From positions 544,001 through 608,000 of the forward strand of contig CAXXLV010000001.1 in NCBI GenBank assembly GCA_963664305.2: a DNA stretch of 64,000 nucleotides, read 5' to 3'. Shown here one piece after another: positions 15,001 through 21,000 of this stretch; the stretch's first letter is position 1; each line of letters starts with the position of its first letter. A program made the position numbers. Source of the stretch: an uncultured Aliarcobacter sp. GTDB taxonomy: Bacteria; Campylobacterota; Campylobacteria; Campylobacterales; Arcobacteraceae.

Positions 15001-18000
15001 AGAATTATCTTCTTCTACTAAATTACCTTTTAAAGACTTTTCAATAAAACTATTAAATGAATTTCTTAAAATATATGCCTTATCATGGTCTGGAAAAAGT
15101 TCTGGAAGTTTATATGAAAGCCAAAGATACAAAGATATTTTTTTAACTTCATCTTCAACTAAAAGCAAATCTTTTTGAGTTATCGCTTTTTTAGGAAGTG
15201 TAATAGAAGGTTTATAGTGACAAACTCTTTTTTTAATTACACTTGCAATATATGCCTCATAAGCTTGTAAAATAATTGTTGATTTTGTAGTAATTGGAGC
15301 TTGGGCAAGAAGATATTTATCCTCAAGTTTTAAATTATATCTTGTATCAACTATTTTTGCAGCTTCAAGCATTGATGAAATATTTGCGGCTCTAAATGGT
15401 CCAGAAAAATACATATTGTCTGCAAAAAATTTTAATACTTTTGTTAAAGAATTAGTTTTTATATGACTTGCTAACGCTTCTAATTGATTGTTATTTATTT
15501 TTACTTTAAATGGCGGTTTTATGGTTCTTATTGGAGATTCAAATTCTTGAGCTATATAAGCTAAAACATCTCTTCTAGTTGCACCTAAATAACCAGCTTC
15601 AAAATGCCCATATCTTCCTGCTCGTCCTGCTATTTGAACTATTTCATTAACTGTTATTTTTCTTCTACTCTTTCCATCAAACTTTTCATCTGTTGTAAAT
15701 AAAATAGTTTTAATTGGAAGATTTAAACCCATTGCAATTGCATCTGTTGCAATTAGAATTTGTGTTTTTTTCTCTCTAAATCTTTTTGCTTCATCTCGTC
15801 TTACTTCAGGAGACAAATTTCCATAAATAACAGAAACCGAATACTTCTTTTGAAGTTTTTGTTTTAATTTTAAAACATCACTTCTTGAAAAGGCAATCAA
15901 TGCTGTTCCATCTTCAAGTTTTTCTAAAGGAGTCCATTTTGGTAAAACTTTTAACTCATTTTTTCTTTGATGTTTTATAATTTCTAATTCTTCACCCAAA
16001 TAAGTTGCTATTCTTTTGATAGCATCAAGGGCATTGACACTTCCTGTCATAATGATTTTTTTAGCAGGACATCCAATAATGGCATTTACCCAAGCCCAAC
16101 CTCTATCAACATCTTCAAGCATTTGAACTTCATCAATAACAGCAACATCAACATCTAAATCAAAATCTAACATTTCAATAGTTGAACAAACATGTGCTGC
16201 TTCTTCATCTAACATTTGTTCTTCACCAGTAATAAGTGATGCTTTTATTTTTGATTCTTTTAAATCTTCATAACCTTCTAATGCCAAAAGTCGTAAAGGT
16301 GCCAAATAAAGTCCAGAATTTGCATCTTTTAATTTTTGCATTGCATTATATGTTTTCCCACTATTAGTAGGTCCCACATAAAACTCCAGTTTTCGATTTA
16401 GACTTCTTGCTAATGGATATAAAGTTTTTAAATCACAGTTTAATAAGGTTTGTAGTTGTTCTTGCCAATTTTCTTTCATAGGCGTATTATATACAATAGA
16501 ATATAATACAAGTTTAAATAAATGAAGGACTTTAATGAATTGTAAATATTTTGGTATTTGTGCATCTTGTACACTTTTTGATAAAACTTATGAAGAACAA
16601 TTAAACTACAAAATAGAAAGAGAGAAAAATAGATTTTCAAACTTTACAACAATGGATTTTGATATCATAAAAAGTAGTGAGAAAAACTTTAGAAATCGCG
16701 CAGAATTTAGGATTTGGTGGGATAAAGATGAAAATGGAAATGAAATTTTATCTTATGCGATGAATGATTTAAAAAAAAATATCTTAAAAATCGATTCATG
16801 TGAAATAGTTAGTTCTCATATTCAAGAAATTATGCCAAAACTGATATTTGAACTAGAAAAAGATTTAATTCTTTCTTATAAACTTTTTGCAGTTGAATTT
16901 TTAGGAAGTACTACAAAAGATTTACTTATAACTTTAATTTATCACAAAAAATTAGATGAAGAATGGAACAAAAAAGCAAAAGAGATTGAGTTAGCACTAA
17001 ATATCAAAATCATGGGAAGAAGTAGAAAACAAAAAATAGTTCTTAGTTCTGAGTCAATAAATGAAACATTACATATAAATAACAAAAATTTCAAATTTGC
17101 CTACCAAGAAGGTGGTTTTACTCAACCAAATACAAATGTAAATATTCAAATGATTGAATGGGTTTTAAATAATATTAAAAATTCATCAAAAGATTTATGT
17201 GAACTTTATTGTGGTGGAGGTAATTTTACTATTCCACTATCTACAAAATTTAACAAAGTTTTAGCAACTGAAATTTCAAAAACTTCTATAAAATCTGCTT
17301 TAAAAAATTGTGAACTAAATAATATAGAAACTATTAGCTTTATTAGAATGAGTGCAGAAGAGTTTGTACAAGCATTAAATGAAGTAAGACCATTTAATAG
17401 ATTGAAAGATATAAATTTAAAAGATTATAACTTTGATACTATTTTTATGGATCCACCACGTTCAGGTTTAGATGATACAACAAGAGGATTAGCAAAAGAT
17501 TTTGAAAATATAATATATATTTCTTGTAATCCTGAAACTTTACATAGGGATTTAGAAGAGTTAACAAAAACCCATGAACTCGTAAAATTCGCACTATTTG
17601 ATCAATTTGCATTTACAAATCATATTGAAAGTGGAGTAATTCTGAAAAAAAAATAACTATTTTAATCTAATTTTAAGAAATGCAGTGTCATAATTTCATT
17701 ATAAAAATTAGGGATCAATGGATTCCGAAGAGATGAAAAGCTTTCTTCTCTATGCTTGGTGGTACAAGAATGTTTGAAGTTGTGATTTAATTTTATTAGT
17801 CACAATATGTAATTAAAAAGGATTTATTATGAGAATTAATACAAACGTTTCATCTTTAACAGCTCAAGAAGCTGCATCAAACACATCAAAAAGAATTACT
17901 GGTTCATTAGAAAAGCTTTCTACTGGTTTAAGAATTAACAAAGCTTCTGATGATGCTTCTGGTCTTGCTATTGCTGATAAATTAAGAACTCAAGCTACAT

Positions 18001-21000
18001 CAATTAATCAAGGTATTGCAAATGGTAACTCTGCAGTTTCTTTATTACAAATTGCTGATAAATCAATGGCTGAGCAATCAAACATTCTTGATACAGTTAA
18101 AGCTAAATTAATTCAAGCTAATACAGATACAACTTCTGATGATGGTAAATTATCTATTGCAAAAGATATTAATAAACTTTTAGATCAGTTAAATAATATT
18201 GCGAAACAAACAAACTATAATGGTACAACTCTATTACAAAAAAATAGAAACTCTGCTGTTTCTCAAACTGGTTTATCATTCCAAGTTGGGGAAAACAGAT
18301 CTGATACTATTAAAACAGCAAGTATTAACTCTAATACAACTGGTTTAAAATTAACTACGTTAAAATCAGGTGTTAGTGCAGCTGCTGCTCTTACAGCTGG
18401 AGCAATTGATACAAAATTTGGTAAAACAATTATTTCTGCTGCACAAAAATTAGTTGATGATGCAATTTCTAAACTAAATGGATATAGAGGGGACATGGGT
18501 TCTACTCAAAATCAAGTTGAATCTGCTGTTAGAAACTTAATGACTCAATCTACAAACGTAAGTGCTGCTGAGTCAATTATTAGAGATGTTGATTATGCAC
18601 AAGAGTCTGCAAACTTTAATAAACAAAACATTATTTCTCAAGCTGGTTCATATGCAATCAGTCAAGCAAATTCTGTTCAACAAAACGTATTAAGATTATT
18701 ACAATAATCTTCTTCTTAAAAAGAGTGAGTTTTTCTCACTCTTTTTTTATATTACTCTTTCTAAACAATATTAATCTTACAAAATTTAGACTATAAACAA
18801 AAGTTTTAACAAAAGATTTTGAAAATATAATATATATTTCTTGTAATCCTGAAACTTTACATAGGGATTTAGAAGAGTTAACAAAAACCCATGAACTCGT
18901 AAAATTCGCACTATTTGATCAATTTGCATTTACAAATCATATTAAAGTAGAGTTATTAAAAAAAAACTACATAATTAATCTAATTTTAAGAAATGCAGTG
19001 TCATAATTTCATTATAAAGATTAGGGGTCAATAGATTCCGAAGAGATGAAAAGCTTTCTTCTCTATGCTTGGTGATACAAGAATGTTTAAGGCTGTAATT
19101 TAAATTCTTAGATTACAATGTGTCATAATTAAAAAGGATTTATTATGAGAATCAATACAAACGTTTCATCTTTAACAGCTCAAGAAGCTGCATCAAACAC
19201 AACTAAAAAAATTACTGGTTCATTAGAAAAACTTTCTACTGGTTTAAGAATTAACAAAGCTTCGGATGATGCTTCTGGTCTTGCTATTGCTGATAAATTA
19301 AGAACTCAAGCTACATCAATTAATCAAGGTATTGCAAATGGTAACTCTGCAGTTTCTTTATTACAAATTGCTGATAAATCAATGGCTGAGCAATCAAACA
19401 TTCTTGATACAATTAAAGCTAAATTAATTCAAGCTAATACAGATACAACTTCTGATGATGGTAAATTATCTATTGCAAAAGATGTTAATAAACTTTTAGA
19501 TCAGTTAAATAATATTGCGAAACAAACAAACTATAATGGTACAACTCTATTACAAAAAAATAGAAACTCTGCTGTTTCTCAAACTGGTTTATCATTCCAA
19601 GTTGGGGAAAACAGAGCAGACACTATTAAAACAGCAAGTATTAACTCTAATACAACTGGTTTAAAATTAACTACACTTAAAAAAGGTGTTAGTGCGGCTG
19701 CTAAAACTACAGCTGGAGCAATTGATACTAACTTTGGTAAAACAATTATTTCTGCTGCACAAAAATTAGTTGATGATGCAATTTCTAAACTAAATGGATA
19801 TAGAGGGGACATGGGTTCTACTCAAAACCAAGTTGAATCTGCTGTTAGAAACTTAATGACTCAAGCTACAAACGTAAGTGCTGCTGAGTCAATTATTAGA
19901 GATGTTGATTATGCACAAGAGTCTGCAAACTTTAATAAACAAAACATTATTTCTCAAGCTGGTTCATATGCAATCAGTCAAGCAAATTCTGTTCAACAAA
20001 ACGTATTAAGATTATTACAATAATCTTTCTTCTTAAAAAGAGTGAGTTTTTCTCACTCTTTTTTTATATTACTCTTTCTAAGCAAATAATATAATCATTA
20101 GTAATATTTTTCATTTGTTCTATAAAAATTTCTTTTATCTTTTTTACTTTCTTTTTCTCATTTTTAACTTTTAAATCATTGAAATGATATGATAAATATG
20201 GAACAACCATTTGAAAATAATTTGCTAATATTTGGTAAAAAATTGGGCATCTATTTTCTGAAACTTTTTTTGCAAATACGAATATTTCATCAAAGAACTC
20301 ATCATAATTTTCAAAATCTTTATTTTTAATACTATTTAAAATATCTTTTGCTTCGCCATTTAAAAATAATATTTCTCTTCTAAATTCTTTTTTAGACTCT
20401 AGTGATAATTCTGTAAATGAAGTTTCTTCTAGTAAATTAGTAAATTTTATATCTTTTGATTTAAAACTATTAAAATTTTTTATTTCTATCTCTTCTACTT
20501 TTTGAGGAATTGCTCCTTCAAAAAATGCACCATGAGTTGAAAGATTATAAATTATTGTATCTTCACTCTTCTTTGAAATTTTTCCTTCAGCACTTTTAAT
20601 TGAACTATAAAAAATTGGAGTTGTAAAAACTTCTTCTTCAAAATTACCTTTTACTTTTAATAAACTCTCATCAATTATAAAAGTATCTCTTTTTTGTTCT
20701 TTATTTAAATCTATAACCTGAATAAGAGAGTTTGAAGCTTTAGCATGAGATTCACCTGTTTTTTGATTTAAAGCTAAATCAAGTCCTATTAAATATAACT
20801 GCTTAGGATTAAAATTTAATAAAATTGCTAAAGTTATTTCACCAATACTAAAGCCATCAAAAACATTGTTATCCATTTGAAAAGGTGTAAATATTTCAAA
20901 TAAAAATAAATTTTCTTGATTAAATTTTTTTAATACATTTTGATTTGTCATTACAGAAGCTAATATGATAGTTCCCTTACTAATTTTTGATACACTTTCA

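Follow-up and report, generated by a model that had tools for sequence, protein, structure and literature searches.

How is flagellin translation controlled in bacteria that lack CsrA? The question is raised by a window of 64,000 nucleotides from an uncultured Aliarcobacter sp. (contig CAXXLV010000001.1; coordinates below count along this stretch), in which two tandem flagellin genes follow structured RNA leaders. The initial annotation assigned each of the two flagellins its own leader copy, and we verified both, at 17709-17772 and 19022-19085.

The flagellin locus

The following features, all on the plus strand, were delineated in the window.

16535-17656, +: trmA, tRNA m5U54 methyltransferase (ORF; TIGR02143, 451 bits, over cut-off)
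17661-17695, +: motif 1 of the late-flagellar promoter, with a TAA..TAAG box 5' of an extended -10-like box (17686-17694)
17709-17772, +: leader core copy 1 (model match, E 1e-15), in the order UA, P1 (17711-17726), GA, P2 (17729-17751), AUG, P3 (17755-17768), AAUG
17779-17806, +: P4 hairpin of copy 1 (fold, comparison with relatives)
17817-17822, +: Shine-Dalgarno of flagellin 1 (sequence)
17829-18707, +: flagellin 1, 292 aa (Flagellin_N and Flagellin_C)
18718-18746, +: terminator-like hairpin 3' of flagellin 1 (sequence; repeat D4/I2)
18796-18946, +: duplicated trmA 3' end (97% identity to 17479-17629)
18974-19008, +: late-flagellar promoter motif 2 (PWM)
19022-19085, +: leader core copy 2 (model match, E 2e-15)
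19092-19119, +: P4 hairpin of copy 2 (fold, comparison with relatives)
19121-19151, +: GYRUCA box (19121-19129), Shine-Dalgarno (19133-19138) and start codon of flagellin 2
19145-20023, +: flagellin 2, 292 aa (ORF; flagellin match)
20035-20063, +: terminator-like hairpin 3' of flagellin 2 (repeat comparison)
38409-38621, +: gene of a 70-aa basic helical-hairpin orphan (ORF; family profile E 2e-31; structure model)

The gene trmA is conserved as the 5' neighbour of the array. Its copied 3' end marks copy 2 of the leader as a product of tandem duplication; the two copies differ at 3 of 64 positions. The GYRUCA box downstream of P4 was lost in copy 1, while in copy 2 the box and the region of the start codon are predicted to form helix P5. 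The 70-aa gene is located directly 5' of recA, at the far end of a sugar-biosynthesis block 3' of the flagellins.

Judging from the promoter motif, transcription of flagellin 1 probably starts near 17701. A PWM of the late promoter derived from 55 relatives exceeded 14 bits at only three places in this genome, i.e. at both flagellins and at the operon holding fliS. The third flagellin, correctly described as devoid of a leader, is a distant paralogue (E 1e-53) that also lacks a late promoter. The core is about 10 nt away from the inferred 5' end of the mRNA. In the arrays of relatives 12 of 66 internal copies have neither a promoter motif nor a terminator ahead, and some follow the upstream stop codon by 14-26 nt. 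Computation shows that the leader is tied to flagellin genes and acts per cistron, and places it within their predicted 5' UTRs.

Structure and conservation of the leader

The proposed three-hairpin fold was borne out by the folding of both window copies, with z of about -1.9 and -2.0 taken singly, and by covariation in relatives. Across 62 distinct relatives 98.3% of the cells were paired, and 10 of the 14 pairs showed two-sided changes. None of 500 shuffles scored as high on cells paired or on the covariation score, and 42 of 500 equalled the number of pairs. Slid controls yielded 34-47%. Pairs 1 to 4 of P2, which were not demanded by the parser, were kept in 95, 95, 95 and 92 of 95 unique leaders, swaps between A-U and G-C included. 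Between paralogous leaders of one genome pairing was kept in 22 double changes and broken in 1. The compensatory changes span 16 genera, G-U pairs are tolerated, and a single orientation is used. The linkers UA, RA, AUG and AA are invariant, while the loops vary freely with inserts of up to 72 nt.

The element had been given a length of 63 nt but is longer: the P4 hairpin, the GYRUCA box and a helix covering the start site follow downstream. The core makes up the 5' portion of a structured leader on flagellin mRNA that totals about 128 nt, and 50-68 nt separate the end of the core from the start codon. The tails differ in how they occlude the start site: type B does so strongly (7.8 vs 4.6 kcal/mol for shuffled sequences; 29 leaders), type A weakly (4.2 vs 3.8 kcal/mol; 68 leaders) with the Shine-Dalgarno within a hairpin loop, and 4 leaders show no occlusion. 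Addition of the core hardly altered the predicted opening energy, and a search for conserved base pairs that could engage the start region instead was negative. A closing helix P0 exceeded shuffles at a single position (65 of 95 vs 49) and not at others.

Two further interpretations of the leader were discarded. The invariant AUG opens reading frames of 3-29 codons without conserved length, frame or sequence, unlike a uORF or leader peptide attenuator. The last position of the GYRUCA box is A in 34 and T in 31 of 68 cases, unlike a -10 box of a second promoter. Rfam covariance models, read up to E 10, left the element without a match, in agreement with the initial annotation.

Distribution of the leader

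The leader was correctly described as conserved in relatives, but the strict pattern used then was too narrow: our model gave strong matches in 85 of 121 Arcobacteraceae genomes. Strong matches were absent from 143 other Campylobacteria genomes, 19 of which had weak ones of at most 32 bits. We dismissed these as leaders, as 10 of 11 checked were inside ORFs and none was 5' of a flagellin gene. The array of up to 11 repeats was found as reported, in G045, where 11 copies about 1.05 kb apart precede 11 of the 12 array flagellins. On the other hand, the generalization that every tandem flagellin has a leader failed: of the 164 flagellin starts in the loci retrieved, only 110 bear one, a share biased upward because the loci were chosen by likeness to the leader. 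The gene usually without a leader is the first flagellin after trmA or, in genus g1, the last one. Paralogous leaders within arrays are often near identical.

A pattern scan by sequence alone over all GTDB species and viral contigs returned at least 137 matches. Among the matches listed, 68 formed 11 or all 12 of the variable pairs; a flagellin start follows in 66 of these, and the other two were a flagellin on inspection and a match at a contig end. A flagellin start came next in 1 of the remaining 69 listed matches, and 0 of 8 viral matches fold. In both model and pattern scans the leader was seen only 5' of flagellin genes, never of signalling or chemotaxis genes. Two MAG contigs labelled as non-Campylobacterota carry the leader with an Arcobacter-type flagellin and promoter, which we read as misbinning rather than as evidence of spread. 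Contigs of relatives in four wastewater and sludge metatranscriptomes cover the leader; transcript start, strand and level are not readable from them. The literature searched gave no description of this flagellin leader. Likewise, the Arcobacter sheet and 11 supplements of Stav 2019 (PMC6429828), where one Arcobacter genome was screened, list no flagellin motif.

Regulators of flagellin synthesis

The lineage had been said to lack CsrA, and this was confirmed on a broader basis: none of 121 family genomes had a csrA match over cut-off, compared with 128 of 143 outgroup genomes as a positive control. In the genome studied here, of which all but 8000 bases were covered, the two genes that flank csrA elsewhere abut, i.e. 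the slot is closed. The reported lack of sigma-28 and FlgM also stood; there is one sigma-70-family gene besides RpoN, and FlgM went undetected in each of the 5 genomes searched. FliW, for which a role had been implied, is present in this genome, but it was not found in 11 of 31 leader-bearing near-complete genomes and was present in 2 leaderless ones. Because its distribution does not track the leader we rejected FliW as the leader partner. The earlier suggestion of post-transcriptional flagellin control is supported with respect to a conserved RNA structure acting on the mRNA, but not with respect to a role of FliW.

A small basic protein as candidate partner

The family of the 70-aa orphan was detected in 93 of 121 Arcobacteraceae genomes, after one match of E 0.003 was dropped, and in none of 286 genomes from other families. 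Among 33 near-complete genomes (at most 4 contigs) 31 have both leader and small gene, 2 have neither and 0 are discordant. Both are absent from g12, which branches near the base, and from g2, a group placed inside g1 with a support of 98; in G111 both leader and small gene are broken. Co-distribution thus reflects few independent events, two clades, and a single clade was not rejected (p-AU 0.117). Fragmented genomes included 3 with leader and without protein and 11 with the reverse; contig ends or joint decay account for 5 of these 11 and not for the other 6. g4 is uninformative because its flagellin arrays are unassembled. G052 has a frameshifted small gene and intact leaders and flagellin genes.

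The two elements are also linked physically. Of 98 distinct homologues of the small gene, 41 are located directly 5' of a leader. No promoter intervenes in 35 of 40 adjacent cases, and a late promoter precedes the small gene in 26 of 40. None of the 98 has a leader of its own. In the genome studied here the small gene lacks a late promoter and is 19 kb away from the leader. Another orphan, the basic 127-aa P0001 encoded after flgG, was excluded as partner, since the 107 of 121 genomes that have it include those of the leaderless g2 and g12. By computed co-distribution and gene linkage the small gene is the best candidate for the leader partner.

The members have 64-70 aa (median 66), a median pI of 10.0, 26% Lys+Arg and invariant K, Q, H and R; the invariant residues are mostly basic. 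The structure model is confident and consists of two helices only. No Pfam or NCBIfam family, PF01385 included, was matched at cut-off, and a PDB sequence search, PHROGs and the ESM Atlas yielded no named family. In one sequence search the only matches outside the family were two TnpBs at 25 bits (weak; E 3.9 and 4.9). Comparisons with TnpB were weak as well, with Foldseek E of 1.2-2.3 for the RuvC alpha1-alpha2 helices and an hhalign probability of 7% (score 23.6 vs at most 18.2 in 40 shuffles). In TnpB this helix pair binds omegaRNA stems (PMC10097598). In a wide fold search the best 50 hits comprised generic helical hairpins and no TnpB; the best, FliJ at Z 7.1, was in the range of common helical hairpins. 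The C-terminus of FliD gave a weak match with 11 of 16 members (best E 7e-4). The leader model, run with filters off, did not match any of 20 tnpB loci, a sample outside which the loci of the closest TnpBs lie. It is a doubtful idea that the small protein is an exapted TnpB fragment, i.e. the helix pair gripping omegaRNA, which was paired with a new multi-helix leader after the loss of csrA and sigma-28 in the Arcobacteraceae ancestor and became an mRNA-binding regulator of about 65 residues without guide or DNA target.

Proposed mechanism and alternatives

We consider it somewhat more probable than not that the small protein binds the leader RNA. That it thereby throttles flagellin translation and does the job of CsrA is our preferred reading, at even odds; as to the direction of the effect we lean somewhat towards repression as opposed to activation or stabilisation. 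In this mechanism the invariant linkers UA, RA, AUG and AA of the three helices would together form a docking site. It would be occupied by the basic helical-hairpin protein of 64-70 aa, whose gene immediately precedes the leader in many relatives and would there be transcribed from the late flagellar promoter. The bound protein would then diminish flagellin translation. The likeliest step may be obstruction of a U-rich linker needed for ribosome entry, 5' of P4 and the start-covering P5. Protein and leader would take the place that CsrA and its GGA hairpins have in Campylobacter and Bacillus, csrA and sigma-28 having been lost in Arcobacteraceae. Against the mechanism speak the distance of 50-68 nt between core and start codon, too long for direct blocking, the start-site occlusion that is strong only in type B tails, the few co-loss events, the discordant fragmented genomes, the frameshift in G052 and the weak FliD match, as well as the position of the small gene in this genome, 19 kb from the leader and with no late promoter.

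The same pair might exert the opposite effect, the small protein activating translation or shielding flagellin mRNA from nucleases and so raising the output of flagellin, the late product of greatest abundance, once the late promoter fires. We regard this as unlikely. Type B tails, which hide Shine-Dalgarno and start codon by default, would fit a need for activation, the core is close to the inferred 5' end, and co-distribution applies equally. Yet array-internal copies without a 5' end of their own keep the core, so 5'-end shielding alone is insufficient, the core has hardly any effect on the predicted opening energy, and G052 keeps intact flagellins with leaders despite its frameshifted small gene. 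It is similarly improbable that flagellin, FliS, the export gate or a general RNA-binding protein binds the leader, or that the leader serves as a signal for processing or localisation, with the small protein being a flagellin chaperone or export factor that has no more than the regulon in common with it. Flagellins are kept in g2 and g12, several genes each, without leader and small gene, which is not expected of a general flagellin factor; P0001, likewise a basic flagellar orphan, does occur in both, and the invariant residues of the small protein are mostly basic. The weak FliD match, FliJ as best wide fold match and the few independent co-loss events argue in favor of such a factor, as does the influence of FliS on the initiation of flagellin translation reported for Borrelia (PMC12327847).

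A riboswitch of a new class, where a junction ligand such as c-di-GMP would switch P4 and P5, has a small probability. Invariant junction nucleotides with variable loops would suit it, and a table in PMC2147049 gives 25 c-di-GMP proteins for A. butzleri. Nevertheless the leader occurs only 5' of flagellin genes, matches no Rfam riboswitch and has no conserved alternative start-region pairing, and a co-distributed protein exists. Least probable is that the leader is an element of the DNA itself or was left behind, as a neutral by-product, by tandem duplication and gene conversion. Even though the window copies stem from one duplication and array leaders are often near identical, this reading is largely refuted by compensatory changes, seen both between paralogues and over 16 genera, tolerated G-U pairs, a single orientation and retention without promoter.

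Comparison with known systems

Repression by the small protein would have a counterpart in the same bacterial class. The C. jejuni flaA 5' UTR, target of CsrA-FliW, is a 45-nt leader with two ANGGA loops according to Dugar 2016 (PMC4894983), where Hag-FliW-CsrA of B. subtilis is described also. The flaA and Arcobacteraceae leaders are both structured, with compensatory changes, and for both a small protein is proposed to limit translation; the Shine-Dalgarno in the hairpin loop of type A tails is a further likeness. In contrast to flaA, the Arcobacteraceae leader has about 128 nt with conserved linkers and variable loops. GGA is found in the P1 loop of 33 of 106 leaders and ANGGA outside the Shine-Dalgarno in 48 of 106, with no ANGGA in window copy 2, unlike CsrA-type leaders, whose hairpin loops 5' of the Shine-Dalgarno have conserved ANGGA motifs. 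Unlike flaA and hag, the system has no CsrA, FliW is not co-distributed, and the candidate partner protein is unrelated.

FlbT/FlaF of Alphaproteobacteria exert post-transcriptional flagellin control by a dedicated protein without sigma-28, encoded beside the flagellin genes. Control by a dedicated protein is proposed here as well, sigma-28 is absent, and in many relatives the gene is found beside flagellin genes. However, FlbT was not detected in 5 of 5 genomes by a search that was positive in Caulobacter, and the small protein gave no match at cut-off in Pfam or NCBIfam. Rfam includes ribosomal-protein leaders and further cis leaders bound by proteins, which are multi-helix RNAs with invariant junctions and a co-transcribed basic protein. 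The flagellin leader shares these traits, co-transcription being predicted in relatives, but differs by the lack of an Rfam match, by its flagellin target and by a small gene that does not carry such a leader (0 of 98).

Three parts can be named that, in the genomes searched, only Arcobacteraceae possess: a late promoter motif, a new family of cis RNAs and a new family of small proteins. If the proposed mechanism is true, an unrelated RNA and protein would have taken over the CsrA checkpoint, as its second and independent replacement. The pair would also offer a compact module of 64 nt and 65 aa for synthetic translational control.

TldRs are nuclease-dead TnpB regulators of flagellin that are full-length, carry a guide RNA and have a DNA target, as described in bioRxiv 2025.07.22.666180 and 2023.11.30.569447. 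A TnpB-like RNA-binding protein tied to flagellin genes would be common to both systems, the likeness being weak and RNA binding predicted in ours. No guide or omegaRNA likeness was found for the leader (20 tnpB loci), unlike TldR, and the 64-70-aa protein weakly resembles only the RuvC helix pair, without WED, REC, full RuvC and zinc-finger domains. If the TnpB likeness reflects ancestry, this would be a new route of TnpB domestication, again at flagellin genes, and a minimal exaptation of an RNA-binding module.

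Leaders of the tandem flagellin genes

A three-hairpin RNA element had been claimed ahead of both tandem flagellin genes, and both copies were recovered with predicted folds of three hairpins. Features of the window are as follows; the last line lies on contig C2 of the same genome.

16535-17656, trmA
17661-17695, late-flagellar promoter motif
17709-17772, leader copy 1, ahead of flagellin 1
17829-18707, flagellin 1 (292 aa)
18974-19008, late-flagellar promoter motif
19022-19085, leader copy 2, ahead of flagellin 2
19145-20023, flagellin 2 (292 aa)
20064-38305, Maf-type glycosyltransferase and sugar-biosynthesis genes
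38409-38621, plus strand, small gene, ahead of recA
G000:C2:1725798-1725832, minus strand, late-flagellar promoter motif

The two leaders are identical at all but 3 of 64 positions. Because the duplication that gave rise to copy 2 also took the 3' end of trmA along, the window alone provides one observation, not two. The sugar-biosynthesis block separates the flagellins from the small gene, which in relatives is located at either end of this block.

Structure and covariation of the leader

Leaders were collected from 70 fetched loci by a parser with fixed linkers that required three of the four P3 pairs, but no pairing in P2 or within P1. Of 164 flagellin starts, 110 proved to be preceded by a leader; this gave 95 unique sequences from 61 genomes and 16 genera. 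P2 pairs 1 to 4 were kept in 95, 95, 95 and 92 of these, with A-U/G-C swaps. A covariation test with 62 of the leaders showed 98.3% of cells paired and two-sided changes in 10 of 14 pairs; none of 500 shuffles matched the score, and slid controls reduced pairing to 34-47%. Between paralogues of single genomes, double changes kept pairing in 22 cases and broke it in one, while single changes kept it in 14 and broke it in five. Thus the leader structure is real. No variation occurred in the linkers and the feet of the helices, UAGG, CC-RA, AUG-CU and AG-AA (in part fixed by the parser), whereas the loops varied freely (P2 12-47 nt, P3 14-72 nt). Judged by sequence, this is the pattern of a putative docking site at a helix junction. 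In one relative, G068, P3 of three paralogous leaders carries a 58-nt structured insertion with the core intact (L053:5400-5525, 6483-6608, 7564-7689).

Distribution of the leader

The leader model R1 matched 93 of 121 Arcobacteraceae genomes with an E of 0.1 or below, and 85 of these strongly; in the genome under study only the two window sites were strong. The 143 genomes of other families gave weak matches only, of at most 32 bits, and 10 of the 11 checked were inside ORFs. A sequence-only scan for the invariant letters across all GTDB species and viral contigs returned at least 137 matches. Among the 137 listed, 68 had at least 11 of the 12 variable pairs: 66 lay ahead of a flagellin start, one more did so on inspection and one was at a contig end. 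Only one of the remaining 69 preceded a flagellin. The initial annotation placed a leader before every tandem flagellin, which holds for both window genes, but arrays usually have one gene without it, and no leader was seen at any flagellin gene of genera g2 and g12.

Twelve of 66 array-internal copies were preceded by neither a promoter motif nor a terminator, some being only 14-26 nt past the upstream stop. The element is thus kept per cistron, at the RNA level. A free-standing copy in G030, behind the last flagellin (L139:317-470, contig C6), consists of an intact core and a long hairpin with no gene; it may be either a duplication remnant or a decoy RNA. Two distant flagellin-like genes of the studied genome (G000:C2:406470-407297 and 638642-639445) have neither leader nor late promoter and probably do not encode filament subunits.

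Late promoter and leader tail

The matrix of the promoter motif upstream of the leader matched only three genome sites, i.e. both flagellins and the operon holding fliS, whose first gene is presumably flgK by its N-terminus. Since the genome has one sigma-70-family gene, we read the motif as a putative extended -10 promoter plus activator box, which implies an unknown activator standing in for sigma-28. Transcription of flagellin 1 would start near 17701. The motif (TAA..TAAG box, about 11 bp apart) is also kept in leaderless genera. Some array genes, alternate flagellin genes of L043, L044, L046, L059 and L060, are without it and have in common another upstream motif (GGGAT..AAAC-like), perhaps a second promoter class.

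The core is followed by a linker rich in U, the hairpin P4, whose stems covary, a GYRUCA box and a helix that covers the start region. The box was present in 59 of 68 tails of type A and 27 of 29 of type B, in none of four others and in 5 of 52 genes without a leader. Of the two copies in the window, the first has lost the box and the second has kept it. Predicted occlusion of the start region was strong in type B (7.8 vs 4.6 kcal/mol in shuffled sequences) and weak in type A tails (4.2 vs 3.8 kcal/mol).

Known flagellin regulators

The reported absence of CsrA and FlgM was confirmed. CsrA was over cut-off in none of the 121 family genomes vs 128 of 143 outside the family. The two genes between which csrA lies in four outgroup loci overlap directly in the studied genome (C1:454896-456519, L165), a clean deletion of csrA. 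FlgM and FlbT were found in none of five genomes searched. RpoN was found in four of five genomes searched for it and is present in the studied genome; it was not found in G045, a closed genome with 12 array flagellins. FliW, also part of the initial annotation, occurs in 60 of 121 family genomes, and its distribution does not track that of the leader.

By analogy with the flaA leader of C. jejuni, which works with CsrA (PMC4894983), the leader may work in a similar way. However, membership tests place it outside the CsrA-bound flaA leader family, and it is not an FlbT system. GGA loops were not conserved among leaders, and Rfam contained no matching family, as stated before. No account of the leader was found in the openly accessible literature or in the sheet that Stav 2019 gives for Arcobacter. 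Miller 2007 states that flagellar regulation in this lineage may be a novel system. We class the leader as a new RNA family and the small protein as a new protein family, with a function of a known kind.

A small basic protein as candidate partner

In many arrays the first flagellin gene is separated from the second by an unannotated gene 64-70 codons long. It was detected in 93 of 121 family genomes (one match of E 0.003 was dropped) and in none of 286 other-family genomes; the outgroup of 143 gave one broken, weak match. Of 33 genomes with at most four contigs, 31 had both leader and small gene and two had neither. Fragmented genomes included three with the leader only and 11 with the gene only; a contig end or joint decay accounts for five of the latter, and six are unexplained. 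This co-distribution, like leader structure, specificity and csrA loss, is a computed result. Because the Ffh tree nests g2 within g1 and puts g12 near its base, joint absence probably reflects two events, although a single clade of both was not rejected (p-AU 0.117). G111 has lost flagellin, and its leader and small gene are both broken. In G052 the leaders are intact and the small gene carries a frameshift. Among 98 distinct homologues, 41 are immediately ahead of a leader and 38 ahead of recA; no promoter intervenes in 35 of 40 leader-adjacent cases, and a late promoter precedes the gene in 26 of 40.

The protein has a pI of 10, 26% Lys+Arg and a predicted fold of two helices (pLDDT 90); no family of Pfam or NCBIfam reached the cut-off. 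Its family has 13 representatives among 1.84 billion proteins.

We infer that the protein binds the leader, the direction of its effect and a release signal. It would dock at the helix junction and probably close the U-rich ribosome entry site ahead of P4/P5; flagellin translation would fall, a feedback equal to that of CsrA elsewhere. We give docking with lowered translation, our preferred reading, an even chance. The same RNA-protein pair might instead activate or stabilise, which we consider unlikely. Another factor might bind the leader, with the small protein merely sharing its regulon, a reading as unlikely as activation. That the leader is a riboswitch seems improbable, and that it has no RNA function at all scarcely credible.

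Likeness to TnpB

Three tests of a likeness between the small protein and TnpB agreed in direction, none being significant alone. In a Foldseek search three ISDra2 TnpB chains ranked 4th, 7th and 16th, interspersed with photosystem I subunits, at E 1.2-2.3 (identity 32% and rmsd 0.7 across 38 columns). hhalign against 27 TnpBs gave a probability of 7% and a score of 23.6, while none of 40 shuffles scored above 18.2. When longer proteins were searched, the matches were three family fusions and, beyond these, just two TnpBs (E 3.9 and 4.9, at 25 bits), one with 16 of 28 residues identical. The matched stretch is presumably the RuvC alpha1-alpha2 pair because it is located after the first RuvC motif; according to PMC10097598, these helices hold omegaRNA stems in the TnpB structure via conserved basic residues. 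Several results speak against the likeness: the 50 matches listed by a wide fold search were all generic hairpins, Pfam gave no OrfB match, FliD matched weakly, and the leader model did not match 20 tnpB loci. The protein is not a TldR. Convergence on a pair of basic helices is as likely as TnpB ancestry.

Further flagellar loci

P0001, a very basic 127-aa orphan with Tyr repeats behind flgG (G000:C1:266078-266461; L162:12078-12461), was found in 107 of the 121 genomes of the family; none of four from the flagellin-free genus g9 has it. It is a candidate nucleic-acid-binding flagellar regulator, which perhaps acts on the promoter box. Next to an EF-hand protein, and away from the main flagellar clusters, lies a second set of hook-related genes (G000:C2:622659-630898, L163); by their N-termini we take these genes to be flgD-, flgE-, flgL-, flgK- and fliD-like. 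Near fliW, a 65-aa ORF (G000:C2:1695497-1695694; L164:498-695) weakly resembles a part of TrmA (E 0.001).
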